Shown here one piece after another: positions 5,627 through 30,294 of a stretch of 35,102 nucleotides of DNA (the first letter of the stretch is position 1; the number at the start of each line of letters is the position of its first letter). The notes below the pieces were generated by a model. That model saw only the letters and a program-made list of their open reading frames with translations, made no database searches and had not been told where the DNA came from. Origin of the DNA: a virus (Duplodnaviria; Caudoviricetes); IMG/VR virus record IMGVR_UViG_3300031628_000015, positions 1-35,102 of that record; one strand, given 5' to 3'. The position numbers and the translations under genes are program-made.

Positions 5627-6727
5627 ATGAATAAAATGAATCTAGAGAACATTAAGGTAAGAGAAGTAAGTGGACCTGAAAAAGGTACAGCTGAAATAGA
5701 ACAAGAATTATTAGATACTCACAAATTAAAAGAAGAACAAGGTGAGACAGCAGAAGTAGTTCTTGAAGAAAAAAATACCGAACTTAAAGAAGAATTAACT
5801 GATGAGTCAGTTTTAAATTTTTTAGGTAAAAGATATAATAAAGAAATTAATTCATTTGATGAGTTAATGCAAGAAAAAGAAGTAACACCTGACTTACCGG
5901 AAGATGTTACAGCTTTTTTAAAGTTTAAAAAAGATACAGGCAGAGGTATAGCAGATTATGTTTCTTTAAATAGAGATTTTGAAGCTATGCAGCCTGATAA
6001 TTTGTTAGCAGAGTATTTTTTAGCTACTGATGAAGCTATTGATTCTGAAGATGTAGATGCGTTATTAGACGATTATACATATGATGAAGATGTAGATGAT
6101 GAAAAAGCTATAAAGAAGAAAAAGTTAGCAAAGAAAAGAGCAGTTGTAAAAGCAAGAAATTATTTTACACAGCAGAAAGAACAATATAAACAACCTCTTG
6201 AGTCAAGAACGGTTGAAAATTCTGAAGCTAGTAAATATAAAGAAGAGCAGGAGCAAAGGTTGAAGAGTGCAAAGAGTAATGAGGAAGTGACTAAGAAAAA
6301 ACAAGATTGGTTTAGACAAAAAACTAATGAAGTTTTTTCTAACGAGTTCAAAGGTTTTGAGTTTGAGTTAGGCGATAAAAAAATTACCTATAGTCCCGGT
6401 GATGCATCAGAGTTAAAAAGTAAACAATCTAATGTTTTAAATTTCATAAATAAATATATGAATCAAGAAACAGGAATGATTGATGATGCCAAAGGTTACC
6501 ACAGAGCTTTATCACTTGCAATGAATCCCGAAAAGTATGCTAAGTTCTTTTATGAGCAAGGCAAATCTGAAGGTGTAGATGGATTAGTTCGTAAGACAAA
6601 AAATGTCAATATGAATGTCCGTAGAACACCTGAAGTTTCAACTCAAAAGGGAGGCATGAAAGTTAGAGCTTTAAATTCGGATTCAGGTTCGGGTTTAAGG
6701 ATTAAAAGTACAAGAAAAATAAATTAG
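5627..6727 (+). CDS. putative capsid scaffolding/assembly protein
   Basis: Acidic, charged, helical 366-aa protein between portal and major capsid protein; basic C-terminal tail. Alternative start at 5636. Confidence 0.65.
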   Translation: MNKMNLENIKVREVSGPEKGTAEIEQELLDTHKLKEEQGETAEVVLEEKNTELKEELTDESVLNFLGKRYNKEINSFDELMQEKEVTPDLPEDVTAFLKFKKDTGRGIADYVSLNRDFEAMQPDNLLAEYFLATDEAIDSEDVDALLDDYTYDEDVDDEKAIKKKKLAKKRAVVKARNYFTQQKEQYKQPLESRTVENSEASKYKEEQEQRLKSAKSNEEVTKKKQDWFRQKTNEVFSNEFKGFEFELGDKKITYSPGDASELKSKQSNVLNFINKYMNQETGMIDDAKGYHRALSLAMNPEKYAKFFYEQGKSEGVDGLVRKTKNVNMNVRRTPEVSTQKGGMKVRALNSDSGSGLRIKSTRKIN

Positions 6728-6754
6728 TTTAACAAAAATTAAAAATTAAAAATT

Positions 6755-8209
6755 ATGGCAGTATTAGCAAACCCAACGTTTCAGTTGCAGCCAAGTGCTC
6801 AACAGGTGGCGTTGTCATCAAATTACATTAGCAATACTCAATTTAACTATTTGAATCAGTATCTACCGGATACTTTTGAAAAAGAGTTTGAGAGATATGG
6901 TAATAGAACAGTATCATCATTCTTAAGAATGGTTGGTGCAGAAATGCCTTCAAATTCTGACCTTATAAAATGGGCAGAACAAGGAAGACTTCACATTAAA
7001 TATACAGCGTGTGTATTAGGTGGAGCAGCAGCAGGAAATCCTAATGAAACTTTTACAGTTCCTGTAGCTCAAATTGACCCGGCAAGACAACCATCAGGTT
7101 CAGTAGCTCCCGCAGGAGCAGCAGGACAGATTGGTTTCAGAAAAGGTCAAACAGTTATGGTATCAGATGATACTGCAGCTTCTACATTAACTAACAAAGG
7201 TATTATTACTGCAGTTACAGCTGATAGTTTTACAGTTAGTTTTTACGAAGCAGCAGGACTTGCAGCTTATGCAGGAACAGTATCTGTATTTATTTATGGT
7301 TCTGAATTCAAAAAAGGTGTTACAGGAATGGAAGGCGGATTAATTTCTTCTGATTTCATTTTTGAAAATTCTCCAATTATCTTAAAAGATAAGTACCAAG
7401 TATCAGGTTCTGATATGGCACAAATTGGATGGATTGAAATTACTACTGAAGACGGAGCATCAGGATACATGTGGTACATGAAGTCTGAGCATGAAACAAG
7501 ACTACGTTTTGATGATTACTTAGAAACTTCTATGGTAGAAGCAGTTCCGGCTGAAGCAGGTTCAGGTGTGGCAACACAAGCTGTTTATGCTGATGCAGGT
7601 AACAAAGGTTCTGAAGGTGTATTCTACGTTGTAGGAAACAGAGGGAATATTTGGGGTGCAGGAAATCCTGTTGATTTAGCAGGTTTTGATAGCATTATCT
7701 CAAGATTAGATAAGCAAGGTTCTATTGAAGAAAACGTAATATTCGTTAATAGAAACTTCTCATTTGATATAGATGATATGTTAGCAGCTCAAAATTCTTA
7801 CGGTGCAGGTGGTTCGTCTTACGGATTATTTGACAACGATGAAGAAATGGCGTTAAATTTAGGATTCACAGGATTTAGAAGAGGTTATGACTTTTACAAA
7901 TCAGAGTGGAAATATCTAAATGACCCAACAATGAGAGGTGGATTAGTAGGTGGTTCAATCAATGGACTTTTAGTTCCTGCAGGTTCAACTACTGTTTATG
8001 ACCAAATACTTGGTAAAAACGCTAAGAGACCTTTCTTACATGTTAGATACAGAGCTTCTGAAACTGAAGATAGACGTTACAAGTCTTGGATTACAGGTTC
8101 AGCAGGTGGAGCACAAAATCAAGAGTTAGATGCTATGACAGTCAACTACCTTTCTGAAAGATGTGTTTGTACTTTAGGTGCTAACAATTTCTTCTTATTT
8201 CAAGCATAA
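6755..8209 (+). CDS. major capsid protein (HK97-type, crAss-like size)
   Basis: 484 aa, Gly/Ala-rich, IKWAEQGRLH motif, follows the scaffold gene and is followed by a strong terminator. Confidence 0.88.
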   Translation: MAVLANPTFQLQPSAQQVALSSNYISNTQFNYLNQYLPDTFEKEFERYGNRTVSSFLRMVGAEMPSNSDLIKWAEQGRLHIKYTACVLGGAAAGNPNETFTVPVAQIDPARQPSGSVAPAGAAGQIGFRKGQTVMVSDDTAASTLTNKGIITAVTADSFTVSFYEAAGLAAYAGTVSVFIYGSEFKKGVTGMEGGLISSDFIFENSPIILKDKYQVSGSDMAQIGWIEITTEDGASGYMWYMKSEHETRLRFDDYLETSMVEAVPAEAGSGVATQAVYADAGNKGSEGVFYVVGNRGNIWGAGNPVDLAGFDSIISRLDKQGSIEENVIFVNRNFSFDIDDMLAAQNSYGAGGSSYGLFDNDEEMALNLGFTGFRRGYDFYKSEWKYLNDPTMRGGLVGGSINGLLVPAGSTTVYDQILGKNAKRPFLHVRYRASETEDRRYKSWITGSAGGAQNQELDAMTVNYLSERCVCTLGANNFFLFQA

Positions 8210-10758: not shown

Positions 10759-13700
10759 ATGGCTACTACTCAAAGAAATTTTATACAAGGTAAAATGAAT
10801 AAAAGCGTTGATGAACGCTTAATTCCTAATGGACAATATATAGATGCGTTAAATGTAAGGCTAGGCTCAACAGAGGCATCAGAAATAGGTTCAGTAGAAA
10901 ACTCAAAAGGAAATACTCAAATAACTACACTTTCATTCAATGGAACAGCTTTAAGTGCATCGGCAAGATGTATTGGAGCTTTTGAAGATGGTGCAGAAGA
11001 AACTATTTACTTTTTTGTACATGACCCTGCTTATACTGTAGGGACAACAGGAAAACTTGATATGATAGTTTCTTTTGATGTACAATCTAATACAACAACA
11101 TACCATTTAATATCTTTAAAAGAAGGTGCATCAGGAGTAAACACTACTTTAAATTTTAATCCTGCTAATTTAATTACAGGGATTAATAAAGTAGAAAATT
11201 TAATATTTTTTACAGACAATATAAATCCTCCAAGATTTTTTAACGTAACTAGAAATTATGAAAACCCGTTTAACTTAATAGATGTATTTACAGCTGAATC
11301 AATATTGGTTATAAAAAAACCACCTATTGCTAGTCCACCTATAACATTAATACAAAGTCAAGCTAGTAATAATTATTTAGAAAACAAGTTTTTATGTTTT
11401 GCTTACAGATATGAATATTCTGATGACGATTTTTCGGCAACATCTCAATGGTCTAAACCTGCTTTTTTGCCTAAAGGTTTTTTATTAAACGGTGATATCT
11501 TAAATGACGGTATGTTAAACAATAGAAATACTGTAAACGTATCTTTTAACACAGGTAGTTCTTTAGTAAAATCTATAGAAGTATTATTTAAAGAATCAGG
11601 TGGTACATTAATAAATGTTATAGATAAATTTGTAAAAATACAAGAAGGATATAATGATAATGAAGAGGTAAGTATAGTATTTGATTCAAATCAAATATTT
11701 ACTATATTACCTGTAGACCAATTAGGACGTTTATATGATAATGTTCCTTTGTTAGCAAAAGCACAAACTTTAATTGGTAATCGTTTAATTTACGGAAATT
11801 ATTATGAAGGATATGATTTAGTTGATGTAAATAAAGAGGTTTGTAATTTTACTTACACACCTACATTAGTCAGTCAATCAATTGGTGTTTCTGACGTAAC
11901 GCCAACACTTTCAGATGGTGATTATACTATTAGTGGAAGTTCAGTAACTATTGCACAAACTGTTGCATCAATAGATTTATCAAATTTATTATTAAAAGTA
12001 GGAGCTCAGTTTACACTAGATTTTACATTTAATCATGATAGTTTTACCGGTGGTACAGCTCCGGGTTCAACTGTAAATAATGTAGACATGAGTTTTGTTT
12101 TTACATTAGCAACAAACTATACTAGTGTAAACAACATGATTAACTCAGTTGAATTTCAAGCTTTAATTGGAGCTGTGGGAGTAAATCAAGCTATAGCAAA
12201 CGCTTGTACATTGGGCACTACATGGACAGACATATGGAACTGTGATATGCCTAATACATTAGATACATTATTTGCATATACCTCCGGAATTAATACAGGC
12301 AATCCATATCCGGGAGTTGGTGCTATACAAAGTACTGTTGTTGGTAATGTTGTTTCTTTTCAATTTCCTGCTATGGTTTGGGTTGATAATATAGCAACAC
12401 CAACTAATACTGTATTTGAGTTTTTTACTATAGCCATAGCATCTGCTACATGGCAAGATATTAGTGAAACAGAAAGTTTACATAGTGATAGAGATTATTC
12501 TCTTGGTATTGTTTATATGGATGAATTTAATCGTTCATCTACAGCTATATTAGCTCCTAATTCTACAGTTCATGTTTCTTGTGGATTATCTGATACAAAA
12601 AACACTATTACAGCAAATATACCTGTGGACATGAAACCTCCTTTTTGGGCAAAAAGATATAAATTTGTTTTAAAACCATCAGCAGGAAGTTATGAAACTA
12701 TTTATTGTAATCAGTTTTTTAATGACCCTGCTTCAGTTGCTTCATATTTTTTATTAGAAGGAGAGAATGCTCAAAAAGTTTCTGAAGGAACAAGACTTTC
12801 AGTTAAATCAGATACAAGTGGTCCTTTATTAAGATGTGCAACTACTGTTGTATTAGAGAAAAAAGCTCAAGCAGAAGATTTTATTGAATTACCCAATGTA
12901 TTAACTATTCCTGCAGGTGTTTATGTAAAAATGAATACAAATGATTTTAATGCTGTTGTAGACCCTAAATCGTCTTTTAGTAGAAAGAGAAGTGATTTTA
13001 CTGACAACTCAGGCACAAGTTCTTTTGTAACGGTGTCATTTGCTGAAAAATTATATCAAGCTAGTCCATCTACAAATATAGATATTCCTGCAGGCTCAAA
13101 AGTTAGATTTGAGTTTGAGTTTAAAAGAAGAGGTACGGGAGATGGTAATAATAATTGTAATAGACGTATATATAAATTAGAAATTAATGTAGTATCTAAT
13201 GCGGCTTATACAGATATTATAAATTTTTGGGTTGGTGAAAATATTGCTCAATATTTAAATGATGGTTCATGGACAGGTGGTTCTACATCTGCAGCAAATC
13301 CTCCTAATAATACTTATTTAGCTACTGTAGCAACACCTACGTTCGCTGTATCAGAGTTAGGTCCTACAAGAGCTCAGGCTCAAATGAGTGGGTTTAATGC
13401 AGGTGATTTAGATAATAATAAATGGCGTTTTGTAATTAACCAAACAAATGGTGAAATATTTTTAGCTTGTACAGGTACAATATCTTGTTCAGGTGTAGGT
13501 CAAAGAGATAAGAGAAGGTCTACAGCAACTGTAGAATATACAATATTCAGAACTGACGATACAATGATATTTGAAACTGAACCACAACCTGCTATACAAG
13601 ATGTGTGGTATGAAGGAGACCAAAGTTATCCTATTATACCTTCAACAGGGTTACATGGTGGTGGAACAAATGCGCAAATATTAGCAGGTAATAGAACTCA

Positions 13701-15255
13701 AACTACAACTGTTTCAGCTATTATAAAAACTACGCTGTTTAATTGTTATGCTTTTGGTAATGGAGCAGAAAGTATACAAATAAGAGATTCTATTCAAGGT
13801 CCGGAAGTTTTTATTGGTAATAGAGTTATAACTGTAGCAGAACAAGACTATAGAGAAGCACATAGATTTTCTGATTTAACTTTTAGTGGGCGTTATAGTG
13901 ATGAAGCTAATGTTAATAGATTAAATGAATTTAATTTTAGTACACAAAACTTTAAAAATTTAGAAGACTCATTTGGTCCTGTACAAAAATTATTTGGTCG
14001 TAAGACTGATATACTTGTGTTACAAGAAGATAAAATTTCATATGTTTTAGCGGGCAAGAATTTAATTTCTGATGCTGCAGGGGGTGGTGCTATAACTACT
14101 AATCCGCAAGTTTTAGGAACTCAAATTGCAAGAGAAGAAGTTTATGGTATTAGTAATAATCCTGAAAGTTTTGTGTGTTATGGTTATGACAAATATTTTA
14201 CTGATTCTAAAAGAGGTGCTGTGTTACAACTTAAAGGAACAAGTGCTCAAAATGAAAAACTAACTGTTATTTCAGAAAGCGGAATGAGAGGTTGGTTTAG
14301 AGATTTGTTTATTGATTCTTTTTCTACACAAAAACTAGGTGGTTATGACCCTTACATGAATGAATATGTTTTAGGAAGCAATTGTATAAAGTTACCTGCA
14401 GAGGCTCAAACAGAGAAATGTGGCATAACTACTCAATATGATTTACTAGAACCGGCTGAACCTCAATCATTTACTGTAGAATTAGGAGAACAAGTAGGTA
14501 TTGTAACACTTGCATGGTTAGCTCCTATATTAGGTGGAGGCACAACATTTACAATAGATGCTGTTTATAACGGAACTACATTTACATCAGGTCCAATAAC
14601 TAGTTCATCTTCATTAACATTTGACAAAAATAGTTTAACTGTTACAACTGCTTTTATAACTGTGTCAGCACAAGGTGGAAATGTCGGTGGTTTATCTTTA
14701 ACAGTTAGTTGTCCTGCTGCGCCAATTATAAAAGTAAGAACTATTGTAGTTACTAGCTCTGCAAATGCAAATGCATTAATAACAAGATATTATGGATATT
14801 CACAAGGCTCTTATAGTGGACCTTTAATTTCACAACAAATACCATTTGTATCAGGAAGTTTTGTTCCATTAGTTTCTAGTTATATTGAAACAACAGGAGG
14901 ACAAGGAACAGCTTCTATTCCTGTTAATGGTTCTATAGTACAACTAGGAACAGTACTAAAACCAAATGACGATTATGTATTTAATGTAGCTCAAGATAAA
15001 TTTGGATTTTTAAGAAGTGATACAAATTATCAAAATAATCCTGCAAGTATAAATGCATTATTTGATGAAATTCAATCAGTAAGTCAATTTTTAACAACTG
15101 ATGTAACGTTAGCACCACAAAAATATTTTAGTACTTTTACAATGCCAAATGATACAACTGAATATTTATATTTAGTATATGATTTGAGAACAGCTACGCA
15201 ACTACAAATGTGTTATTCATCTACAGATGCATCTGATGCATGTTGTGGATGTTAA
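10759..15255 (+). CDS. tail nozzle/stabilisation protein (P22 gp10-like / crAss muzzle-like), N-terminal major part plus appended beta-rich domains
   Basis: N-terminus GKMNKSVDERLIP.GQY.DALNVR...GSVEN; FFTDN.NPPR; AKAQ..IGNRLIYGNY; YGISNNPESF...YFTD.KRGAVL; GGYDPY..EYVL; 1498 aa, beta-rich. Confidence 0.75.
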   Translation: MATTQRNFIQGKMNKSVDERLIPNGQYIDALNVRLGSTEASEIGSVENSKGNTQITTLSFNGTALSASARCIGAFEDGAEETIYFFVHDPAYTVGTTGKLDMIVSFDVQSNTTTYHLISLKEGASGVNTTLNFNPANLITGINKVENLIFFTDNINPPRFFNVTRNYENPFNLIDVFTAESILVIKKPPIASPPITLIQSQASNNYLENKFLCFAYRYEYSDDDFSATSQWSKPAFLPKGFLLNGDILNDGMLNNRNTVNVSFNTGSSLVKSIEVLFKESGGTLINVIDKFVKIQEGYNDNEEVSIVFDSNQIFTILPVDQLGRLYDNVPLLAKAQTLIGNRLIYGNYYEGYDLVDVNKEVCNFTYTPTLVSQSIGVSDVTPTLSDGDYTISGSSVTIAQTVASIDLSNLLLKVGAQFTLDFTFNHDSFTGGTAPGSTVNNVDMSFVFTLATNYTSVNNMINSVEFQALIGAVGVNQAIANACTLGTTWTDIWNCDMPNTLDTLFAYTSGINTGNPYPGVGAIQSTVVGNVVSFQFPAMVWVDNIATPTNTVFEFFTIAIASATWQDISETESLHSDRDYSLGIVYMDEFNRSSTAILAPNSTVHVSCGLSDTKNTITANIPVDMKPPFWAKRYKFVLKPSAGSYETIYCNQFFNDPASVASYFLLEGENAQKVSEGTRLSVKSDTSGPLLRCATTVVLEKKAQAEDFIELPNVLTIPAGVYVKMNTNDFNAVVDPKSSFSRKRSDFTDNSGTSSFVTVSFAEKLYQASPSTNIDIPAGSKVRFEFEFKRRGTGDGNNNCNRRIYKLEINVVSNAAYTDIINFWVGENIAQYLNDGSWTGGSTSAANPPNNTYLATVATPTFAVSELGPTRAQAQMSGFNAGDLDNNKWRFVINQTNGEIFLACTGTISCSGVGQRDKRRSTATVEYTIFRTDDTMIFETEPQPAIQDVWYEGDQSYPIIPSTGLHGGGTNAQILAGNRTQTTTVSAIIKTTLFNCYAFGNGAESIQIRDSIQGPEVFIGNRVITVAEQDYREAHRFSDLTFSGRYSDEANVNRLNEFNFSTQNFKNLEDSFGPVQKLFGRKTDILVLQEDKISYVLAGKNLISDAAGGGAITTNPQVLGTQIAREEVYGISNNPESFVCYGYDKYFTDSKRGAVLQLKGTSAQNEKLTVISESGMRGWFRDLFIDSFSTQKLGGYDPYMNEYVLGSNCIKLPAEAQTEKCGITTQYDLLEPAEPQSFTVELGEQVGIVTLAWLAPILGGGTTFTIDAVYNGTTFTSGPITSSSSLTFDKNSLTVTTAFITVSAQGGNVGGLSLTVSCPAAPIIKVRTIVVTSSANANALITRYYGYSQGSYSGPLISQQIPFVSGSFVPLVSSYIETTGGQGTASIPVNGSIVQLGTVLKPNDDYVFNVAQDKFGFLRSDTNYQNNPASINALFDEIQSVSQFLTTDVTLAPQKYFSTFTMPNDTTEYLYLVYDLRTATQLQMCYSSTDASDACCGC

Positions 15256-15265
15256 AATTTAAATT

Positions 15266-16237
15266 ATGGGTATAACAGTAAATTATTATTTAGACGGAAC
15301 AACTTTTGCAAATGCAACTAAAATATATACAGATGCAGGTTTGACAAATCTAGCTCCTAATGGATTTTATTCTGTTGGAGGAAAATATCGTCAACAAACA
15401 GGAGGTATTTTAGCATCAGAAAACATATGTCCTGCATGTAATGAAGGATGTGCTTCAAGTCCAACTTCAACAGGAGAAGGAAGTTTCTTTTTTAATAGTT
15501 TACCGGCAGGCATATATAGTATAAAAATAAATACAGGTACAGCTGTAGGATTAATAAGACCATATATCGCACAATTAAACAATGAAGTAATTGGTATTCA
15601 GGTTCTTCACAATGGTGTACTATATAATGATTGGGTTAATGATGGCGGATATCAATCTCCGGGAGGTAATAATCCTTGTTGGATAGGTGACGGTTCAGGA
15701 ACTCCTACTCCTCCTGCAGCAGGTACTTCTTTTACAAATCAACCTGTATATACATGGGATGGAACTCAATGGGTTCAGGGCGGTAATGCGGGATATAGTG
15801 TAAATAACCCTACAAACTATTCTGCTGCAACTACTTTTAATTCTTGGTGTGGTAATGTGTCAAAAACAGTAAACAATATAAACCAACAAGATGTAGATAT
15901 AACAGTTTTTATACCACCGGGTACGCCTTTAGCTAGTTTTAATCTTGTTATACAATGTCCTTTTTTACTACCTGCAATATCTTTCAATTCAACAGTACAG
16001 GCAAATCCTGTTGATGCTTGTAATTTATCAACTACACCTAACTCATTCTTTTTTGGTGGTGGTGCTAGTGTTTCTACAACAACCGTATCTATTAATGGGT
16101 TTGCTTATACAAATCAATTTGCATCAAGTGGTACATTAGCAGCGGGATATTATAAAATAAATGACGGAACAACTAATCAAACTATGCAAGTTGATGTTAA
16201 CGGGGTTGTAATAGCACTTGGAACATGTCCACCTTAA
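15266..16237 (+). CDS. Cys/Gly/Thr-rich tail decoration or receptor-binding protein
   Basis: 323 aa, very low charge, rich in G/T/N/P with many Cys; lies inside the nozzle locus. Confidence 0.55.
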   Translation: MGITVNYYLDGTTFANATKIYTDAGLTNLAPNGFYSVGGKYRQQTGGILASENICPACNEGCASSPTSTGEGSFFFNSLPAGIYSIKINTGTAVGLIRPYIAQLNNEVIGIQVLHNGVLYNDWVNDGGYQSPGGNNPCWIGDGSGTPTPPAAGTSFTNQPVYTWDGTQWVQGGNAGYSVNNPTNYSAATTFNSWCGNVSKTVNNINQQDVDITVFIPPGTPLASFNLVIQCPFLLPAISFNSTVQANPVDACNLSTTPNSFFFGGGASVSTTTVSINGFAYTNQFASSGTLAAGYYKINDGTTNQTMQVDVNGVVIALGTCPP

Positions 16238-16247
16238 AAAATAAATT

Positions 16248-17081
16248 ATGAGTTGTATAAATTACACATTAAGTTATAGTGAAGGAGTTCAAGGATTTCC
16301 TTCTTTTTATTCTTATCATCCTGATTTTATGATTGGTATGAATAATTATTTTTATTCTTTTAACAAAGGAAATTTATGGAGACATAATACTAATGAGAGA
16401 AGAAATTCATATTATGGAATAGATTATAATTCTCAAATTACAAGTGTTTTTAATGAGTCTCCGTTAGAAAATTTTGTGTTTAAAACAATTAGTTTAGAAT
16501 CAGATGATGCATGGTCAGTAGATTTCTTTAGTGATATTCAATTAACAGGATTTATTAATGCCTCATCTTTTATAAAAAAAGAAGGCGCATGGTTTGCTTA
16601 CTTACGAAATGAAGGAGCTACAGAAGGGGTGGGAACTCCAATAGACAGCGGTCAGTATCCTTTACGTTCTATATTAGGTATAACTAATAGTACAGCAAGA
16701 GGTGGTAGTACCGCTAATCCTATTGTTCAGTTTAATATAGGAATAAATAGTGATTTAGATTCTTACATTAATCCTCAAATTAATATTAATGATTTTTTAT
16801 ATCATAGTAATTTAACAGCCACACCACCTGAATTAACTTATGCAGGAAAAATTGAATCTATTAATTATTCACCTATTAATGGTGTTGTTAGTATAACAAT
16901 AGATGCTACAGGAGCTGCTGTAATACCTGCGGGTACTTTGTACTTTGCAGCTGTAAAAAATCAAATTGCAGAGTCATATGGTATATTAGGGCACTATGGA
17001 AGATTTAAATTAACAAACTCCTCTATCTTAGCCACAGAATTATTTGCTGTTGAGTCTGATGTCATGAAAAGTTATCCTTAA
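16248..17081 (+). CDS. nozzle/stabilisation protein C-terminal portion encoded as a separate gene
   Basis: TLSYSEGVQGFPSFYSY.PD.MIGMNN.FYSF.KGNLW.H...FN..P...VFKTISLES...KKEG.WF...ELFAV.S: motifs I recall as the C-terminal part of crAss-like stabilisation proteins. Confidence 0.6.
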   Translation: MSCINYTLSYSEGVQGFPSFYSYHPDFMIGMNNYFYSFNKGNLWRHNTNERRNSYYGIDYNSQITSVFNESPLENFVFKTISLESDDAWSVDFFSDIQLTGFINASSFIKKEGAWFAYLRNEGATEGVGTPIDSGQYPLRSILGITNSTARGGSTANPIVQFNIGINSDLDSYINPQININDFLYHSNLTATPPELTYAGKIESINYSPINGVVSITIDATGAAVIPAGTLYFAAVKNQIAESYGILGHYGRFKLTNSSILATELFAVESDVMKSYP

Positions 17082-20361: not shown

Positions 20362-23300
20362 ATGGCTAACGAACAAGCATTACAAGATTTATATAAAGAA
20401 TTTGTTAAAACGGGATATAGAGGTTCTAAAGATGAATTTAAAGGACTGATGAGTTCTAACATAGATGCTTTTAAAGATGGTTATAAATCTTTTACATCTA
20501 CAGGTTATAATGGTGATGAAACTGATTTTGCTGAGTTATTAGGCGTAACAGTTCCTGAAAAAAAAAAAGAAATTTTACAAGAAAATGGCGATGGAGTTTT
20601 GGAAGGTGGTCCATTACAATTGGAAGAACCTCCTACTACAGATAACCCTCCGCCCGCTACATTTAATTTTGGTGAAACAAACGTAGACAATTCACAAGCA
20701 CCTCAATCAAAAGACCCAAATGCTCCAAATTATGTAGAGGAATTTAAAGGGTTTCAAAACGATGATGTATCAAAACCAAATTATTATGATTCAGTTATAG
20801 GTGCAGGAGATTTACCTCCAAAAGATACTAGACTAGACGGTTATCAAGACCCTGTAAAAGCAATGGGAATGTACCCTGCCGGAGACGGAGTAAGTGCAGA
20901 GTCTGTTACTATTCAAATAGATAAAGCAAGAAGAGAAAGCGCAGCTGATAGAGCTTACACAGCTAAACTTATACAAGAAGAAATAGCTGCAGAATATCCT
21001 AATCAAGCAGAAACTGTTCAAGAGAGAAATACTCAAATGACTGATTTTCTCGAACAAAAAAAGATAGAATCAGATGATGATAAAAAAACATTTTTTAATA
21101 CGGAAGAAAGATTAGATGTTAATAATAGAAAATATATTTTTTCCCAAGAAGAAAGAAAACCTTTTAAAGATAAAGCATTACTTGAACAAGAATTAAATAT
21201 TGTTACTTCAGATTTAATTAATGATGATAACAACAAAGCTACAATTTCTACATTAACAGACCAATTTAGTAAATATGGATTTGTTTTTACAAAAGCTTAC
21301 GGTTCTATGGTGGCTCGTACTTCAGACGGTAATGCAGAAATTACTATAGATATAGACCCTTTGTTTGGCGTTGGTGCTGATGACGAAGTAGCTGATTTAA
21401 AAAACTTTTTAATGCTTAATTCTAGCGAAATAGTTGATTCTGATAAAAACATGGATTTTATTGGTAATTCATTAAAAGCTCAAAACATGAGAAGTGGAAG
21501 ACGTGTCAATAAAAATGGTACTGTATCTTCTCATTTAATGGGAACATTTGAAGAAGACGGTAAATTTTTAGTTGCTCCTACTTTATTTCCTGTAGACGAT
21601 GAAAATCAAGCTAGTTATGCAAATAATTGGATAGAGTTAAAAGGTAAGAAGGCTTTAGATTTAGCTAAAGAAAGAAATGAAGTATTTACTTTTGATACCC
21701 AAGAAGAGGCTAATGCATTTGCAGACGGTTCATGGAAAGGTGTAAACACAATAGATGTTGAGGCTCAACAATTTTATAAAGAAAGAGGATTAGATTATCA
21801 ACAAATTTCACAATCATTTAATATTTATCAAGAAACTAGAGATAGGATTGATTTTATTGAAGACCTTTTAGATGGAGAATTACAGAGAGATGAGTTTGGT
21901 GATTTCAAAGATTCAACAATGGGTGATGATGTTAATCGTATTAAAGATTTGTCTTTAAAAAGACAAGCACAATATGGGGATTTATATGTCAATGGAGAGT
22001 TAAGAGATGATATACAAGAAGAGTTAGCTAGATTAAAAACACAAGAAACTGCATTATTTGGGACTGCTTTTAACAATAAAGTAAAAGATACAAGAAATGA
22101 ATTTGATTTATACTTAAGAAAAAAAGAACAAGCAAAAGTATCGGAAGCAGTATTTATTAACGATACAGTTAAAAAAGAGCAAAGTGTAATAGATGAACAA
22201 GCTTTAATAAGGTATGGTGAAAAACCAATGAATTTAGCTAAAGCCATAAATGAGAACACAACAAGACAAGAATTTGTTGAAATGCAACAATTACAAACTC
22301 AAACTTTAAATTTAAATTTTGAAAGAAAAAATGCAGCGATGATTTATGAAAACTCACAGCTGTATTTAAATCGCATGGAGAATAAAAAAATTCAAAACGA
22401 TTTTGTAGATAATTTTGAGGGTTTTACGGAAGAGTTTGCAAATGGTTTACAACAAGGTCATGCTGCTAATTCTATATTACAATACGCTATGGGTGTTGAT
22501 TTAATTGGGGGTGGTGATGATGATGATGTTATGGATATAGCATTACATATTGTTGATGCAATGAATAACAAAACAGGCAATCAAAGTAAAACTATGCTCA
22601 ATTGGGAGGATTCACAAGGCTTTAGAGAATCTTGGGATGTTGTTGCTAGTGACCCTCTTGAATGGAGTACTCAATTAGCAAGTAAAAGTATTGCAATGAT
22701 GTTACCATATGGAGCTCAATTAATTCCTATGTCAGGAGTTATTGGCGCAGGAACAGGTGCGGGTTACGGAGCTTTGGGTGCTAATCCTCTAACTATAGCA
22801 ATAGGTGCTAAAGTAGGTTTAGGTTATGGTTTAAGGGTTGGTTTTGCTGCTACAACATACGCAATGGAATATACCAATTCTATTCTTGAGGCTATTACTG
22901 AAACGGGTTATGATATATATAATCCTGACGAAGTAGCTTTAGCTTTACAAGACCAAAAAGTTTGGGATGTAGGTGGAGCAAGAGGTCATGCAAGAGGAAT
23001 ACCAATTGCTATAATTGATTATTTTACTGCAGGTTTAGCAGGTAGATTATTTATGCCTGCAAAATTTGCAATAACATCAAAAGGTGTGTTAAAAACAGCA
23101 GGTTTAATAACAGCTGAGAGATTAGTTCTTGACCCAATAGGTGAAGGTGTAGGTGAGACACTTGCACAAGAAAACGAAATCTTATTTGGAACAGGAAGAA
23201 ATGAACTTGACTTTAAAGAAATTGCTGCAGAAATGGGTGGTGCATTTGGAAATCAAGGAAGTAATGCTGTTATTAATATGACATTACTTAATAGTAATAA

Positions 23301-26300
23301 AAGAAGAAATAAATTATTAGCTGACTTTACAGACCCTGCTTTTTTAGCAACTTATACAGATGCAACTCCTGAACAAATATTAAATTTTGTAAATAAAAAC
23401 GTTAAATTAGGGAAAATAGATGCATCTAAAGGAAAAGCTATAACAGATAATTTAGGTATTTTAAAATCTGCTACAGATTTGTTAGGAGAAAATGCTGACC
23501 CTGCAGTTGTTGCTAGAGCTATGAGGTTAATAGAAGCTCAAAATAATCTTGGTTCAACTATAAATAGGCGTGAGGTATTTAAAAGTAATATTAAAAGTAT
23601 TAATGCAGAGCTTAGTGAACTAATTTTAACAGGTAAGCTATCTGATAAGTTTGATGAAAATACAAAAACTATAGAAGGTATTCAAGGACCAACAGGAACA
23701 AAGGTTGATAATATAAAATTAGACCCATTAAACGAAAGTAAGTTTGATGTAAAGTCTTTTAATCAATTTAAAATTGGAACAAGCACTTATGAAACTCCTG
23801 AAGATTTTCTGAAAGCAGTTGACAAAATGTCAAAAGAAAAATTAATAAAAAGCAATCCTGCATTTACAATTAAGGACAACGATGCTTTAGCAACTGCGCT
23901 AAACGATTACGTTGTAAAGAAAATGTTAGGAATAGAACAAGAATCATTTAAACTTGAAGATTATGCCAATCAAAAGCAAAGCTCAATTAAGATACCTAGC
24001 GAAGTTCAAACCAAAACTCCTGAAGAAGTGGCAGAAGGAGTACCCGGTGGACCTAAAAAAGTTACCCAACAAAGTGAAACGCAAATAGAAGCAGATAGAA
24101 AAGCTGAAATAGATGATTACTTTACAACTGATGAAACTGACGGAAAAGTTAGTGACCCAATCTTTATAAGTTTAAGAGAGCAAATTTTGTCAGATACATT
24201 CATGACTCAAACTGAAAAAGGAAAAGCACAAAAATTCTTAGTAGCTTTAGGTAAAACAGATAAAAGCCATCAACAAAAAGTTGATGCGTTAAATAAAAGA
24301 TACGGAGAGAGCAGAAGAAGACCTTTTGTATTTGTTGAGACAGAAATAGACAAAATCAACGCAAAATATGATGCTATGCTTGAGTCTACTGAATCAACTA
24401 CAGAAGAAGTAACTACAGAAGAATTAGCTTCTCAAGAGAAAGAATATTTAGCAAAATTAAAAAAAGATAGAAAGAAAAAAGGTAGTAAGGTTACAGTTGT
24501 AGATGATAATAGTTTTAAAACTGAAATTTTTAAAAAAGGTAAGTTTGTATCAAAAAAGAATATTGATGATATAAAAGTTGGTGATGTTATAATGAATAAA
24601 CAAGGCACTTCTTTTACAGTAACTGAAATTATAGAAGACTCTACGGTTGTAGGAGGTAAAATATTTAAGTCTAGCCAAGCCCTAATGAATCAAGAGCTGA
24701 TGATGTCACAAGGACTTTATTTGACAGAAAAGACATCTGAAACAATAACAGAAAAGAAGTCTACAGAATCAACTACAGAAGAAGTTAGTGCTGAAAGTAA
24801 AGAGATTTTCGACCAACAAGTAAAAGAAATGGAAGAAGGTTTGGATGATAAAGTTGATTTTAGATTAAAAGATGAAAACAAAGTTGAACCTGATAGAGAT
24901 GAGATAGAGGCGATTACACAAAGAATAAATCTTTTAGAAAGCGACAATGTAAATACTAAAATTGAGACTGAAGAAAGTAATGTTAAGTTAGATGTACAAG
25001 AGTTAAACAATAGAACAGATACAGACTTACAAGTAACTTCTATAGAACTTATTGATGGTATACCTGCAGCGTTTACAATATCTGACCAACTTACTACAGG
25101 TAATGTGGTTAATCCAAACACAGGTACAACTATTGATAATTTAAAAGGGTCAATAGGTTTTAATGGTACTACAGGAAATGAACAAGCAGCTTGGGCAGGA
25201 ACGACAAAAGCCAAAGCAGAAAATATGTTGCAAAATGCTGAATTTATTTATCAAGCTAACAAACCAAAAATAGATGAGTTTTGGGCTAACAATCCTGAGT
25301 ACAATGGATTAGTTCCTGTTAATGTTGTTAAGATGGCTGAAAGCGGAATTATTTCTAATGAAGCTATGTTTAGAGTGTTAGCTGATAATTTAACAAAGAT
25401 ACCTGAAGAAAACAAAGTAAAGGCTTTGGAAGCTTTGAAGACAGAAATTATAAGCCGAAGAGATAAAGCGAATAAAAAGAAACCTTTTAATGATATAATT
25501 TCATTGTTAGAAGGAAAAGATATTCAATCTATAGATGATGTAGTTGCTCCTAAATTTGTAAAAAAATTAGGACTTGGAGCTAGAGTTAATCTTATGAATA
25601 TTATAGGATACGGAACACCTAATAAACCCGGACAAACTAAAAAAGCAGGTGCTGTTTCTGAACTTTCATCTGTTACTACAGCATTGCTAGAAAACCAAGA
25701 TGAAAGTGCTAGAGAGTTACTTAACATTGCAAGTATTGCTGAAATAATTACTGACAAACAAATGAAAGATGTTCCTGAAGGAAGTATCGTTGCTATAGTT
25801 GGTGTAGATGTTTTAAATCCGGGAGTAGTAGAAACAACACATCCAAATTATAAATATGGTGTAAGAGGAAAATCTATGGGTGTCCTTACAAACCCTGTGT
25901 CTATGGAGAAAGCTTATCCTATAGCATATAAAAAAGCAATGGGTAGTTTAGTTGAAAAAGAATCACAAGGTAAAAAAGTTACAGGTAAACAATTAAGAAC
26001 TAATCAAACAGGATTAGGAATTGGTATACCATCTAAAGATTATATTGGAGCTAAAGCAGGTTCTCAAAGTAATATAAATAAGTTAAACAACTTTTTAAAT
26101 ATATCTTTTCCCGGAACAACAATTTATACTGATTCAGAAACATTTAAAATTGTAATGAATTCTGAGGGTGTTATGCAATACTCAAAAGGAAATCAAACCG
26201 TATACGGTGTTACAGTAAATGGAGATATATATATAAACCCTGATGTTCACAATAGTGAAAGTGAACTGTTTAACACTTCTATTCATGAGATGGGACATGT

Positions 26301-29300
26301 TTGGACTGACTATATACAAACAACAAAGAAAGGTAAATTATTATATGAAAGAGGTTCTGTTTTGGTTAAGAAAACTAAAACATATAAAGACCAATTAAAA
26401 AAGTTTGATGGAAATCAGAAGAAAGCTGTAGATGAAGCTATGGCTATTTTAATTGGAAACAAAGGCGAAACTATTGCTAACGCATCATTACAAGCTAAAT
26501 TTAAAGAATGGTTGTTAGGGATGTGGAAGTTAATCATGGATGAGTTTAAAATGTCTAAAGATTATAGTGAGGCAGAAATTCAAGATATAACTTTAGATGA
26601 GTTTATTGGAAGTGCATTGGCTGATATTTTTAGCGGCAAAGAAATAGAATTATCTAACATACAACAAAAGCAATTAAAAAATCCTGAAGCAGCATTTAAG
26701 CAAGGATTAACAGCCGAACAAATGGTTATTAGAGGTAGAGAAATGGCTATGCCTGATGATGTTGTTGCGGCTGTATTAAGAAAAAGACTAAAATTAAATG
26801 AGGAACAAATTTTAGCATTAATGGAAACAGCTATACCAACAGCTTTTACAAATGCTAAAGGTGGTATTAATGTGGGTGAGCAGATTTTTAATCAAGTAGA
26901 AGAGTTAAGATTAAAAAGATTAAAAACACTTCCTGAAGCCAATAGAAAAGTATTAGTTTCCGAAGATGGTGGTAAAACGTTTAAAAATGAAAAGCTTAAA
27001 GCGGAGGCTTTAAAATATAGAAAAGAAGAAAGAGCAGCTAGAAAAAAAGATTTAGAAGACAACAAGTTGTTTAAAGAACAACCTCTTGTAAATCAAAAAC
27101 AAATGATAGCTGAGTATGATGCTATGTTAGGCACTAAGGCAAATCAAGCTGTTCAACAAGAAATAGATGTTATATTAGCTGAGTTAAAAGGTCGTAAAGA
27201 CTCAACAAAAGTTTCAAAAGATATAAGAAAAAGATTGTCAAATTATATTAGAAAAGCTTTAACAACTGTTAGCAAAGTAAATAAAACAGAACTAAAAAGT
27301 ATATTAAAAACTATTGCTGAAGTTGATGATGTGAATTTTGTTGCTGAGGTATTGAGGGTTCAAGAAATAGTTAATGAGATAAAAGTAAAAGACAAACAAA
27401 CTTTTTTACAAACTATTAAAGATTACGTTAAGAAAAAAACAAAGATTAAACGTAGTAATAAAAAACCTAAATCAGGTAGTTTAGAGTATAGAGGTCAAGA
27501 GTATTTTAAAGTTTTAAATAAAGCTTTAAATTTAAGCAGAGAAGCTTTCATACAGAAAAAAGTAGAGTTGGCAGCTCTTGAAGTAGAGATAGAAGAAGCT
27601 CTAACTAGAGAAGCTAATTTAAAAGAAGGCAAGTCTTTAAACAAAGCTGATTCTATACTTTTGGCTGAAGCAGAAATCTATGCTCGTTATGATAATTTAG
27701 AAACGAAATCCATAGAAGAACTTAATGATATATTTAAAGGAATAAAACAAGAAGCTAAACAGTCTAGGCAAGAACTATTAAAAAGAAGATTGAAGAGAAA
27801 AGAGAGAGCTGCAAAAATAAAAGCTGAAGCAGACGAATCTATAGAAACAAATTATCCATTTTTGTATGGAGAAAAAGGTTTAAAAACTGATAGAGAAGTA
27901 GAAGATAGTAGAAAATCTAATATACAACAGTTTATAGATAAAGGTTTTTTAAAGTTTATGAAGGATTTTGCAGATGGTATTTTTAGTCCTTTTATTAAAA
28001 CTGAAAGCGGAACAAATAATTTGGGTGTAATGCTTTCTAGATATTTCGATAGTATTATTTCTAATACTCAAACTTTATTTAACATATTAGATGGTAGAAA
28101 AAACGAATTCTTTACTAAATACTTTCAGAAACCTTTAAGTAAAGCTAACTTTAAAAGAGAAGAAGGTGTTAGAGACGTTAACAGATATGTAAATAAACTT
28201 GCCGAAAGAGCAGGTTTTAAAAACAAGGGTAATCTAGATGTAAACAAGGCTTATCAAAACTTTAAACTTGCATTACTTAAAAAGAATCCAATGATTCTTT
28301 CAGGTATTGATGTTACGGAAAACAATCCTGATGGAACATTTAACAATCCTACTAATGACCAATTGGTTTATATATATGCTATAGCTAAAAATCCTGAAGT
28401 TCGTGCTAGACTAATACAGCAAGGATTTACAGAGGAAAAATTTAAAGCTATAGAAGAACATTTAGGTAATGATGTGATAGGTTTTGCAGATATAGTAGTA
28501 GACTATTTAACTAATGACAGTTATGATTCTATTAATGAAGTCTATGTAAGAAACAATGACGTAAATTTAGATAAGATAGAAAACTATTTTCCTTTATCTA
28601 CTAAGCTAGACCCAACATCTGAAGAGAAATCTATAGGATTTCAATCTGATGTGTTTAGTACATTTACTGCAGAGTCTCCAAGCTCATTAAAAATGAGAAG
28701 CAGAAATTCTATAATAAATCCTGCTACATCTTTTACTGATATGCTAGACTCACACATAGAATCTACAGAGAGATATAAAGCTTATGCAGATTTAGTCCCT
28801 GAATTAAATAGAATATTAAAAATACCATCTGTAAAACTTTTGTTAAAAGAATCGGGATTAACATCATTAAATAATGAAATGTTAAATTTTGCAATTAACG
28901 GGAGAGATAATTTTGAAACAAATTCGTTAGACTCTAAGTTAGTTAACACAATTCAAGGTGCGTTTGTTAGTTATGTTTTAGGTTTAAAAGTATGGCAAAT
29001 TCCTAAACAAGCATCTTCGTTTATTGAAGCGTTTAAAAAGTTTAGATACAAAGGAAATTTAACTTATCAAGCAGTTGATAAGGCTACTTTAGGTATACCT
29101 GCGACAGCTGTTGATGCAATTATGTTTCTTGGTCGTTATACTCAAACGTTAGCTTTAACACTTGCAGGAATGGAAGGTGGAATTAAAACAGCTAAAAAAA
29201 TATCGGCAGGATTTGAACAAAGAATGCTAGAGGCTTTGTCAGGTAAAAACCTTGTAGAACTAGAGACAGGAAATAAATCAGGAAAAGGATTAGGAGCAGC

Positions 29301-30294
29301 TGTAGGTAAATTTTTAAATCCGGATGGTACAATTACAATTGCCGGAAAAACATATACTACAGCAGAATTAAAAGGTTATGTTAAATCTTTTATTGGAGCA
29401 GGAACATCTATTGGAGATGTTATGGGTGTTATGGGTTACATGGCTAATTATAATCAAGACATTGCAAATGGAATGACAGAGACAGAGGCTGCATTAGAAT
29501 TTGTAGAATACAATCTTACTCAGCAATCTCGTAGAGATATGGATAAAGGTGGTCTACAAAGAAGAGCAGGTCTGTTAAGATTGCTTACAATGTTTGGTAG
29601 TACAATGTTTTTACAGATGAATAACACAGCTGTTAATATGAGAAACATTATGCGTAGCATTAGAAACGGTAAGATGCCATCTAAAACAGATATCAGAGGG
29701 TTTATAATATCAGGAGCTGTAGCAAACATGGCATTCCAAGCTACTGCTAACATGTTAATGCTTACTAAGGGTGATGAGGATGAGAAATTAGAAGCTATTA
29801 AAACTATTAAAAGACAAATGACAGGATTTACTCAGCTTACTAGAGTTCCAATATTAGGAGCAGCAGCTGAATCAGGTATAAATTATATGATGGGTGAAAA
29901 AGGAAATTCAGGTTATTCTGAATCAGGAGCTGTAGAACCTTTATTAAGAATAGTAAAAGAGTCTGTTAAAGGTTTAAATGAAGAAGATTACATTGCAGCT
30001 ATACGTCCTTTCCTAGAATTAAGAATGGGATTCCAATTTGACCCTGTAGAAGGAACAGCAAGAATGTTAACAGGAGAAGGTGAGATTGATAAAAATTTGT
30101 ACGACATTCTAAACGTTCCTAAAACTCAACGTCCCGGTGGCGGAAGAACCAAAAAGAGTTCTTTACCTCCTATGTGGATGATTGAAACATTAAACAATCC
30201 TGTTTTGTTAGAAAAAGTAAAAGAATTAAATAGGAAAAAAAGAGAAGTGAATAAAACGAAAAATGATTTGAAGAAAAAGTTAAGAAATAAATAA
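20362..30294 (+). CDS. giant internal virion/ejection polyvalent protein with a zincin-like metallopeptidase domain
   Basis: 3310 aa; Gly-zipper hydrophobic segment at about aa 787-835; GDIYINP...SIHEMGHVW (26284-26298) with downstream DEAMA; helical, partly hydrophobic C-terminal region. Confidence 0.75.
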   Translation: MANEQALQDLYKEFVKTGYRGSKDEFKGLMSSNIDAFKDGYKSFTSTGYNGDETDFAELLGVTVPEKKKEILQENGDGVLEGGPLQLEEPPTTDNPPPATFNFGETNVDNSQAPQSKDPNAPNYVEEFKGFQNDDVSKPNYYDSVIGAGDLPPKDTRLDGYQDPVKAMGMYPAGDGVSAESVTIQIDKARRESAADRAYTAKLIQEEIAAEYPNQAETVQERNTQMTDFLEQKKIESDDDKKTFFNTEERLDVNNRKYIFSQEERKPFKDKALLEQELNIVTSDLINDDNNKATISTLTDQFSKYGFVFTKAYGSMVARTSDGNAEITIDIDPLFGVGADDEVADLKNFLMLNSSEIVDSDKNMDFIGNSLKAQNMRSGRRVNKNGTVSSHLMGTFEEDGKFLVAPTLFPVDDENQASYANNWIELKGKKALDLAKERNEVFTFDTQEEANAFADGSWKGVNTIDVEAQQFYKERGLDYQQISQSFNIYQETRDRIDFIEDLLDGELQRDEFGDFKDSTMGDDVNRIKDLSLKRQAQYGDLYVNGELRDDIQEELARLKTQETALFGTAFNNKVKDTRNEFDLYLRKKEQAKVSEAVFINDTVKKEQSVIDEQALIRYGEKPMNLAKAINENTTRQEFVEMQQLQTQTLNLNFERKNAAMIYENSQLYLNRMENKKIQNDFVDNFEGFTEEFANGLQQGHAANSILQYAMGVDLIGGGDDDDVMDIALHIVDAMNNKTGNQSKTMLNWEDSQGFRESWDVVASDPLEWSTQLASKSIAMMLPYGAQLIPMSGVIGAGTGAGYGALGANPLTIAIGAKVGLGYGLRVGFAATTYAMEYTNSILEAITETGYDIYNPDEVALALQDQKVWDVGGARGHARGIPIAIIDYFTAGLAGRLFMPAKFAITSKGVLKTAGLITAERLVLDPIGEGVGETLAQENEILFGTGRNELDFKEIAAEMGGAFGNQGSNAVINMTLLNSNKRRNKLLADFTDPAFLATYTDATPEQILNFVNKNVKLGKIDASKGKAITDNLGILKSATDLLGENADPAVVARAMRLIEAQNNLGSTINRREVFKSNIKSINAELSELILTGKLSDKFDENTKTIEGIQGPTGTKVDNIKLDPLNESKFDVKSFNQFKIGTSTYETPEDFLKAVDKMSKEKLIKSNPAFTIKDNDALATALNDYVVKKMLGIEQESFKLEDYANQKQSSIKIPSEVQTKTPEEVAEGVPGGPKKVTQQSETQIEADRKAEIDDYFTTDETDGKVSDPIFISLREQILSDTFMTQTEKGKAQKFLVALGKTDKSHQQKVDALNKRYGESRRRPFVFVETEIDKINAKYDAMLESTESTTEEVTTEELASQEKEYLAKLKKDRKKKGSKVTVVDDNSFKTEIFKKGKFVSKKNIDDIKVGDVIMNKQGTSFTVTEIIEDSTVVGGKIFKSSQALMNQELMMSQGLYLTEKTSETITEKKSTESTTEEVSAESKEIFDQQVKEMEEGLDDKVDFRLKDENKVEPDRDEIEAITQRINLLESDNVNTKIETEESNVKLDVQELNNRTDTDLQVTSIELIDGIPAAFTISDQLTTGNVVNPNTGTTIDNLKGSIGFNGTTGNEQAAWAGTTKAKAENMLQNAEFIYQANKPKIDEFWANNPEYNGLVPVNVVKMAESGIISNEAMFRVLADNLTKIPEENKVKALEALKTEIISRRDKANKKKPFNDIISLLEGKDIQSIDDVVAPKFVKKLGLGARVNLMNIIGYGTPNKPGQTKKAGAVSELSSVTTALLENQDESARELLNIASIAEIITDKQMKDVPEGSIVAIVGVDVLNPGVVETTHPNYKYGVRGKSMGVLTNPVSMEKAYPIAYKKAMGSLVEKESQGKKVTGKQLRTNQTGLGIGIPSKDYIGAKAGSQSNINKLNNFLNISFPGTTIYTDSETFKIVMNSEGVMQYSKGNQTVYGVTVNGDIYINPDVHNSESELFNTSIHEMGHVWTDYIQTTKKGKLLYERGSVLVKKTKTYKDQLKKFDGNQKKAVDEAMAILIGNKGETIANASLQAKFKEWLLGMWKLIMDEFKMSKDYSEAEIQDITLDEFIGSALADIFSGKEIELSNIQQKQLKNPEAAFKQGLTAEQMVIRGREMAMPDDVVAAVLRKRLKLNEEQILALMETAIPTAFTNAKGGINVGEQIFNQVEELRLKRLKTLPEANRKVLVSEDGGKTFKNEKLKAEALKYRKEERAARKKDLEDNKLFKEQPLVNQKQMIAEYDAMLGTKANQAVQQEIDVILAELKGRKDSTKVSKDIRKRLSNYIRKALTTVSKVNKTELKSILKTIAEVDDVNFVAEVLRVQEIVNEIKVKDKQTFLQTIKDYVKKKTKIKRSNKKPKSGSLEYRGQEYFKVLNKALNLSREAFIQKKVELAALEVEIEEALTREANLKEGKSLNKADSILLAEAEIYARYDNLETKSIEELNDIFKGIKQEAKQSRQELLKRRLKRKERAAKIKAEADESIETNYPFLYGEKGLKTDREVEDSRKSNIQQFIDKGFLKFMKDFADGIFSPFIKTESGTNNLGVMLSRYFDSIISNTQTLFNILDGRKNEFFTKYFQKPLSKANFKREEGVRDVNRYVNKLAERAGFKNKGNLDVNKAYQNFKLALLKKNPMILSGIDVTENNPDGTFNNPTNDQLVYIYAIAKNPEVRARLIQQGFTEEKFKAIEEHLGNDVIGFADIVVDYLTNDSYDSINEVYVRNNDVNLDKIENYFPLSTKLDPTSEEKSIGFQSDVFSTFTAESPSSLKMRSRNSIINPATSFTDMLDSHIESTERYKAYADLVPELNRILKIPSVKLLLKESGLTSLNNEMLNFAINGRDNFETNSLDSKLVNTIQGAFVSYVLGLKVWQIPKQASSFIEAFKKFRYKGNLTYQAVDKATLGIPATAVDAIMFLGRYTQTLALTLAGMEGGIKTAKKISAGFEQRMLEALSGKNLVELETGNKSGKGLGAAVGKFLNPDGTITIAGKTYTTAELKGYVKSFIGAGTSIGDVMGVMGYMANYNQDIANGMTETEAALEFVEYNLTQQSRRDMDKGGLQRRAGLLRLLTMFGSTMFLQMNNTAVNMRNIMRSIRNGKMPSKTDIRGFIISGAVANMAFQATANMLMLTKGDEDEKLEAIKTIKRQMTGFTQLTRVPILGAAAESGINYMMGEKGNSGYSESGAVEPLLRIVKESVKGLNEEDYIAAIRPFLELRMGFQFDPVEGTARMLTGEGEIDKNLYDILNVPKTQRPGGGRTKKSSLPPMWMIETLNNPVLLEKVKELNRKKREVNKTKNDLKKKLRNK
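23963..24088 (+). CDS. nested +1-frame small basic protein (41 aa) inside the giant gene
   Basis: MPIKSKAQLRYLAKFKPKLLKKWQKEYPVDLKKLPNKVKRK*; start context TTTAAACTTGAAGATT-ATG; resembles small phage proteins of the MPFKSxAQRR..W..E.P..KLP.KV type. Confidence 0.6.
   Translation: MPIKSKAQLRYLAKFKPKLLKKWQKEYPVDLKKLPNKVKRK
24383..24785 (+). repeat. 28-bp direct repeat pair (24383-24410 and 24758-24785), 375 nt apart
   Basis: AGTCTAC[T/A]GAATCAACTACAGAAGAAGT, 27/28 identical; both encode STESTTEEV. Confidence 0.9.

Follow-up and report, generated by a model that had tools for sequence, protein, structure and literature searches.

The window, by which we mean the whole stretch of DNA analyzed (35,102 nt), is a 35-kb record that comes from a marine phage of podovirus type. 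From left to right it carries genes for terminase and portal, a scaffold-like gene whose 366-aa product is acidic, the capsid and tail genes, and finally a gene for a 3310-aa protein. The closest cultured relatives by capsid, whose hosts are Flavobacteriia, are Maribacter phage Panino (51%), Elemovirus (46%) and the Pervagoviridae (39%). Two DNA runs from other studies contain the stretch letter for letter on single contigs, and either is a possible source of the window. Wholly inside the 3310-aa gene, and in its +1 frame, lies a short ORF that a first-pass annotation had proposed as a hidden gene (Table 1). The coordinates and translation given there are exact, with 15 Lys or Arg residues against 2 Asp or Glu, and the window sequence agrees with its account of the bases upstream, of a disordered-looking linker in the host frame, and of an ATT-ATG ending common to the starts at 6755, 15266 and 16248.

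Table 1. Features of the nested gene, its host and their surroundings (window positions).
Feature	Position	Strand	Basis or remark
Nested +1-frame gene, 41-aa basic microprotein, predicted helix hairpin	23963..24088	+	Homology, conservation in relatives, selection test, structure model
Translation initiation region, Bacteroidia type, A at -3, -6, -11, -12, -13; host-frame reading F-K-L-E-D	23947..23962	+	
Host linker coding in both frames (codons 1201-1243); its acidic/polar sequence is the peptide's "shadow"	23962..24090	+	
Host gene at the end of the structural block, encoding the giant 3310-aa protein; likely a polyvalent protein of internal/ejection type	20362..30294	+	
HEMGH in the host protein, a HEXXH motif of the zincin-like MPTase type	26284..26298	+	Invariant in A2; motif described in the available portion of PMC5512222
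38-nt direct repeats (87%) bracketing part of an insertion of about 215 aa	24383..24795	+	
Scaffold-like acidic gene between portal and capsid; alternative host in other relatives, empty here	5627..6727	+	

Pfam and PHROG searches with the 3310-aa host protein gave no match. Its counterpart in Elemovirus is annotated as a structural protein, and this annotation, together with gene position and the HEXXH motif, indicates that the host is likely an internal or ejection protein; the gene between portal and capsid is termed scaffold-like, a putative assignment, for its position and acidity. Directly after the nested gene, the host carries an insertion of about 215 aa without counterpart in close relatives, which looks like a module insertion with duplication of its flanks. 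Elsewhere in the window, the N- and C-terminal parts of the crAss muzzle profile match the genes at 10759-15255 and 16248-17081, split by the gene at 15266-16237, and at two other loci (L225, L226) one protein matches both parts. Immediately 5' of the start codon of scaffold-like genes of the L001-L079 class, a TATAATAT/TATATTAT element was found in 20 of 20 read and is a possible late promoter or operator. At L220 (G002), positions 6650-7540, a structural gene homologue lies in four pieces, with a capsid match in two, owing to assembly frameshifts or another cause.

The length of the nested ORF was rejected as evidence for a gene because it is at chance level: synonymously recoded versions of the host gene contain a mean of 1.9 ATG-started +1-frame ORFs of at least 41 codons, and the real host gene holds another +1 ORF, at 26243, that is longer than the nested one. 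Support beyond chance comes from homology, conservation in relatives, frame-specific selection and start context. In Flavobacterium, A at -3, -6, -12 and -13 promotes initiation, according to the available portion of Baez et al. (2019, PMC6847099). All five adenines (-3, -6, -11, -12 and -13) are present at the window start, which is the case for 2 of the 147 +1-frame ATGs of the host gene. Across 28 dereplicated nested copies (the set used for start context, entropy and charge), A is found at -13 in 28, at -12 in 25, at -6 in 20 and at -3 in 14, and TAAA occurs in the start region of 23 of the 28, against 12.5% of 3177 control +1-frame ATGs. GC-rich phages have an SD-like GGAG before the nested copy in place of the adenines. 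An in-frame TTG at 23954 would give an alternative start (44 aa), yet every one of the 44 nested copies, window included, starts with ATG. A candidate internal promoter was rejected, as TAnnTTTG lies upstream of 5 of 27 nested copies versus 70 of 326 control windows. In two RNA runs, contigs came close to the ORF but did not extend across it. With no promoter signal of its own, the gene is likely translated from the late polycistronic structural mRNA, by independent initiation at its adenine-rich start.

Peptide queries returned nothing in word-based homologue searches or in tblastn of GenBank phages, and neither Pfam nor NCBIfam holds a family for the peptide. phmmer (HMMER), searching among 1.84e9 representatives, gave 17 matches at E ≤ 1e-3, across which M1, P2, S5, W23, L34 and P35 are invariant. 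Stand-alone homologues of the motif type named in the first-pass annotation do exist, both in annotated phages and at free loci: FlowerPower gp48, 023Pt_psg01, P-RSP2 (unannotated) and Barnyard gp9 are free genes, and the free, annotated homologues come from Streptomyces, marine and mycobacterial phages. Two GenBank records carry an unannotated free homologue, Gordonia phage Suzy (L345:3501) and P-RSP2 (L315:5001). Nested copies share 98% identity with two proteins in the library (P0018, P0020), so that library matches alone are no proof of free genes; gene callers thus sometimes report nested copies, and the description of the gene as invisible to them was overstated. DUF3008 (PF11450) was tried and rejected as a family, with a Pfam match in 0 of 34 family members and an Atlas assignment (0.85) as the sole lead. 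PHROG 1375, which includes Patience gp10 and Barnyard gp9, is matched by 15 of the 34 family members (best E 2e-6); the query peptide itself has no match to it at E ≤ 0.01, hhalign to Patience gp10 gives 75% and E 2.4e-5, and a Barnyard gp9 query matched 486 actinophage records. By these comparisons PHROG 1375 would be a remote relative of the query, and the query not a member. We found no description of the nested gene in print; the small-phage-gene survey and the text and supplements of the Elemovirus paper could list the family, and the available portions of PMC8776804 and PMC11965321 do not mention it.

Single-protein queries from the host region found no relatives in IMG/VR; scans with giant-protein alignments yielded 95 host-selected loci, of which one (L142) is identical to the window. 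An intact, ATG-started +1 copy is nested at 43 of these loci, 9 have a free copy 2-12 nt past the stop of the giant gene (spacing measured for seven of the nine), and 43 have no match, many because the site lies outside the locus. Within the window's own clade the gene is nested at every locus. At 14 of 73 giant-gene loci the site and the 3' end of the gene are covered and the copy is absent; in the giant genes of 18 loci without a match, no Met-Pro remnant was found in the +1 frame, and no nested copy was found in phi38:1 or in 49 kb of Panino. The cultured Elemovirus elemoF, which infects Flavobacterium BAL314, carries an unannotated copy in its 3694-aa gp18 (NC_055853.1, 52379-52507), and MW202828 has one as well. 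Stops in the +1 frame or a missing ATG in close relatives had been named as what would speak against the gene; the frame is open and the ATG present in 44 of 44 nested copies.

Selection acts mainly on the peptide frame. Nucleotide entropy at host codon positions 1/2/3 is 1.04/0.88/0.66 in the 28 copies, the reverse of a normal gene, and both expectations set out with the original claim are borne out: the +1 frame is more conserved than the 0 frame (amino acid identity 0.56 versus 0.40), and synonymous variation is suppressed in the host frame (8 of 110 changed codons versus 377 of 1003 upstream). In 12 non-overlapping pairs of relatives, drawn from HMM-positive copies, substitutions at host positions 1/2/3 number 82/39/33 in the overlap versus 476/373/771 upstream (p 8e-12; independence of sites is assumed in the p-values, and the upstream control is usable in all but two pairs). 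Synonymous and non-synonymous changes in the same pairs are 49/48 in the peptide frame and 8/102 in the host frame; for the window compared with its nearest relative they are 7/5 and 0/12, respectively. Scaffold-nested copies, at codons not fixed by the search pattern, show the same reversal (27/19/16 versus 296/195/593, p 1e-4). Peptide identity tracks host identity (Mantel rho 0.31, 2 of 2000 permutations), which fits, and no more than fits, vertical descent. Collectively, the homology, conservation and frame-specific selection leave us highly confident that the nested ORF is a real gene under purifying selection in its own frame.

Several of these loci have features of their own. At L122 the host ORF stops 74 nt past the nested gene and in the near-identical L208 it reads on, likely an assembly error. 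L228:7605 and L176:9556 are truncated duplicates of the 5' end of the nested gene that include its start context and precede the full copy by 396 and 468 nt, and the gene may be a recombination anchor for linker modules.

The small gene is not tied to the giant gene: its single copy may sit there, within the scaffold-like gene, or on its own. A DNA pattern for the peptide matched an estimated 920 IMG/VR stretches, of which 120 were fetched and 80 had full flanks; 22 of these 80 loci have the copy nested in giant genes, 22 in scaffold-like genes and 36 elsewhere, mostly free. The nesting site in scaffold-like genes, which are homologues of the gene at 5627-6727, lies after about residue 36-57. 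No copy is present in the window's own scaffold-like gene or in any of 65 from the closest capsid relatives. One record selected by its giant gene (G030) has its copy in the scaffold-like gene, and a 200-aa piece of the window's giant protein found no match in the giant proteins of five scaffold-nested records. In three sets of whole records, a single match was found in 37 of 44, in 15 of 34 (one of them weak) and in 5 of 5, and no record had two; 3 of 13 near-complete records have no copy, and a 137-kb phage with a fused form still has one. At L062/L222:7793 the upstream gene enters the small gene in its -1 frame and ends about 30 codons into it, a partial-overlap intermediate. Four GC-rich loci have SD-led copies nested in genes for giant proteins that bear DarB-like or LPD23 domains; no homologue of the window capsid was found in the GC-rich nested records (25-75% complete), and nesting in these phages is probably a separate event.

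In a tree of the host protein (68 rows, built by a quick method with the search unfinished and midpoint root, and with Elemovirus below the coverage cut), nested copies are widely spread and the eight rows with a free copy after the gene form one clade adjoining nested rows. Subject to rooting, the pattern suggests that the ancestral copy was nested, that it escaped once, and that some losses or relocations took place. What is conserved in the host linker is only a shadow of the peptide, and the linker is missing wherever the gene is missing. Since the free gene occurs in many phage groups and the linker is only such a shadow, insertion of a pre-existing gene into an acidic linker is favored, which supports the proposal that a small gene became embedded in the large one rather than being derived from it; the small gene looks older than the host linker.

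The charges of the two frames are complementary, with the nested peptides at net +9 to +16 (28 copies) and the host segments at a median of -9. The -1 frame of the small gene would read as an acidic E/Q/G-rich string even where there is no host, and free copies do read acidic in that frame, which is open in 14 of 35. Insertion into an acidic scaffold or ejection linker could thus be tolerated in exactly that frame, and the small gene would have to remain out of frame because its free Met-Pro N-terminus is kept. Taken together with the function discussed below, these data could describe a mobile, frame-complementary passenger that entered structural genes at least three times (the scaffold-like gene, the giant gene of Bacteroidia phages, and the giant ejection genes of GC-rich, SD-using phages), left at least once, and encodes a packaged DNA-binding head microprotein. 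Under this passenger reading, the initiation signals brought along match each host, and the giant-protein motif D/N-A-[IV]-Q-[EK]-Q-S is the coding shadow of the small gene. We consider the combined account about evenly balanced between right and wrong.

The peptide, which has no Cys or hydrophobic signal, is modeled as a two-helix hairpin (helices 6-15 and 17-26, pLDDT 85.7). Comparison with solved folds gave a best Z of 2.5, Foldseek gave no match, a PDB sequence search gave SOX2 at E>2 and nothing usable, and the matches in BFVD are only to uncharacterised small phage proteins at E>0.07. In the predicted fold, the Met-Pro start would be followed by a Ser5-x-x-Gln8 helix cap and a turn at Pro17, with Trp23 and Leu34-Pro35 packing a small core beneath a surface that would be variable yet always basic, within the charge range given above. 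A conserved fold with conserved charge at shifting positions points to a sequence-independent nucleic-acid binder, for which DNA would be the simplest target because that target must be common to phages with very different capsids. The product may therefore be a basic two-helix microprotein that binds DNA, irrespective of sequence, during head assembly or packaging.

The gene lies between portal and capsid in Patience, Penelope2018, Suzy and the scaffold-nested relatives. In the Patience study (PMC4324244, Table 1 and S1), gp10 counts as a virion protein on the strength of 1 spectrum from particles, with 30-33 for its neighbors gp11, gp12 and gp111; infected cells gave 4 and 2 spectra for gp10. 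Trypsin would under-detect gp10, and cutting the small nested protein with trypsin would leave a single peptide of 6 or more residues. The recurrence of this location in actinophages and in scaffold-nested relatives, together with the weak signal from Patience particles, argues for a role in the head module. Given a real gene, a DNA-binding head-module role seems to us somewhat better than an even prospect; a late DNA-binding head-module microprotein, taken overall, has roughly equal chances of being correct, and as an explanation of the whole, a translated single-copy nested gene whose product is a predicted DNA-binding head microprotein comes out marginally above the midpoint.

The peptide is carried as a module by 1169 longer proteins, N-terminal in 118 of the best 120, a bias that the search words and profile themselves favor. 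The cargo includes MuF, NUDIX, lysozyme, SAM lyase, peptidase and other domains. After the module, K-x-A occurs in 58 of 116 tails versus 26 when shuffled, and [KV]E[AS] in 25 versus 9 (P0028-P0147); these motifs may resemble prohead-protease sites. In P0074 an endonuclease VII domain is flanked by a copy of the first seven residues on one side and the full module on the other, in the manner of a homing-endonuclease-like insertion.

The same evidence bears on other functions. The product may be a head accessory that binds protein and not DNA, such as an inner capsid protein, a portal or scaffold ligand, or a modulator of protease or chaperonin. Its head-module position, the invariant Met-Pro, Trp23 and Pro, the fusion to MuF, and an unassigned small helix at the 3-fold axes of Patience (in the available portion of PMC11965321) are all consistent with such a role, but the family is found in siphovirus- and podovirus-type phages whose capsid proteins have no mutual match, which makes a shared protein partner hard to name, and it is the charge of the surface that is conserved and not its sequence; we consider this reading unlikely. 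Less probable again is an action in the infected cell (take-over, anti-defence, nucleoid or ribosome/RNA binding, or lysis timing), with the late position reflecting timing only. More Patience gp10 spectra come from infected cells than from particles, FlowerPower gp48 adjoins a holin, and absence among relatives is patchy. Against this, the portal-capsid location recurs, and in the available Patience data gp10 shows no increase between 30 and 150 min, resembling, at tiny counts, virion proteins carried in with the particle, while late non-virion proteins do rise (gp21 from 2 to 214, gp32 from 6 to 186).

A role of the module as a capsid-targeting tag that carries cargo into the head, in the manner of the leader of T4 internal proteins, is improbable: although its N-terminal position on many longer proteins, its diverse enzymatic cargo and the K-x-A that follows would suit a tag, there is one copy per record, even in the 137-kb phage, nested copies are cargo-free, and hitch-hiking of cargo on a packaged single-copy protein would explain the fusions equally well. 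An untranslated relic, or a chance shadow of the acidic linker in which E-rich codons read as K in the +1 frame, is largely refuted and very improbable; chance-level length and the tendency of acidic frames to yield basic +1 frames would allow it, but synonymous change is suppressed in the host frame and dominant in the peptide frame, also between the window and its nearest relative, and the copies remain open even though 9.7% of upstream +1 codons are stops. Ribosomal frameshifting into the +1 frame, which would truncate the giant protein and add a basic tail to it, has a negligible chance of being correct, since although the window's +1 frame is open for 27 nt upstream of the ATG, that ATG is kept in all nested copies, initiation adenines or an SD are properly spaced, free homologues begin with Met-Pro, and two unrelated host genes are involved.

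Embedded overlapping genes are a known kind; what would be new here is the switching of hosts and a small gene that appears to be the older frame. Well-supported nested genes in dsDNA phages are, to our knowledge, few. With nested copies in two kinds of host, partly overlapping copies and free copies, the birth and resolution of overlaps could be traced on a tree. A capsid motif of the phage group matched some 13,000 stretches; combined with the estimated 920 stretches with the peptide pattern, about half of the 80 examined being nested, this indicates a probable virion component missed at scale. If the preferred reading of a DNA-binding head microprotein is true, the parts lists for a highly abundant group of marine phages lack a packaged DNA-binding component.

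Among known systems, the lambda Rz/Rz1 spanins occur in embedded, overlapped and separated architectures, with Rz1 a lipoprotein kept beside its partner Rz. Similarly, the small gene here lies in the +1 frame of a larger one, and nested, partly overlapping (L062) and free states are all seen; unlike Rz1, it switches between host genes and lacks both a Cys and a signal peptide. An Rz1-type outer-membrane spanin was accordingly ruled out, there being no Cys and no hydrophobic signal, and the host being a 3310-aa protein. The J protein of phiX174, a small basic viral core protein of about 40 aa that is specific to ssDNA phages and not nested, has a similar length, strongly basic character and role at DNA or the inner capsid, as proposed here; no sequence or fold match was found to J or to other small basic viral core proteins. 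In the T4 internal proteins, the capsid targeting sequence is a short N-terminal module on diverse cargo, as is the module here, which differs in being single copy per genome and usually cargo-free. PHROG 1375 (Patience gp10, Barnyard gp9) shares the basic motif F-K-S-K-x-Q-W...W...L-P and the head-module position, but its members are free genes that have an N-terminal extension and do not begin with Met-Pro. The phage polyvalent proteins (Iyer et al., 2017, PMC5512222) resemble the host genes, being giant and with HEXXH, and with LPD23 or DarB-like domains in other lineages; they do not resemble the nested gene, and no nested gene is described in the available portion of that study. The closest precedent for the arrangement itself is in Patience, where genes 91 and 20 wholly contain same-strand, out-of-frame ORFs translated from their own starts (PMC4324244, available portions). 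Those ORFs have no database relatives and their conservation is ambiguous, whereas the nested gene described here belongs to a widespread family under clear selection.
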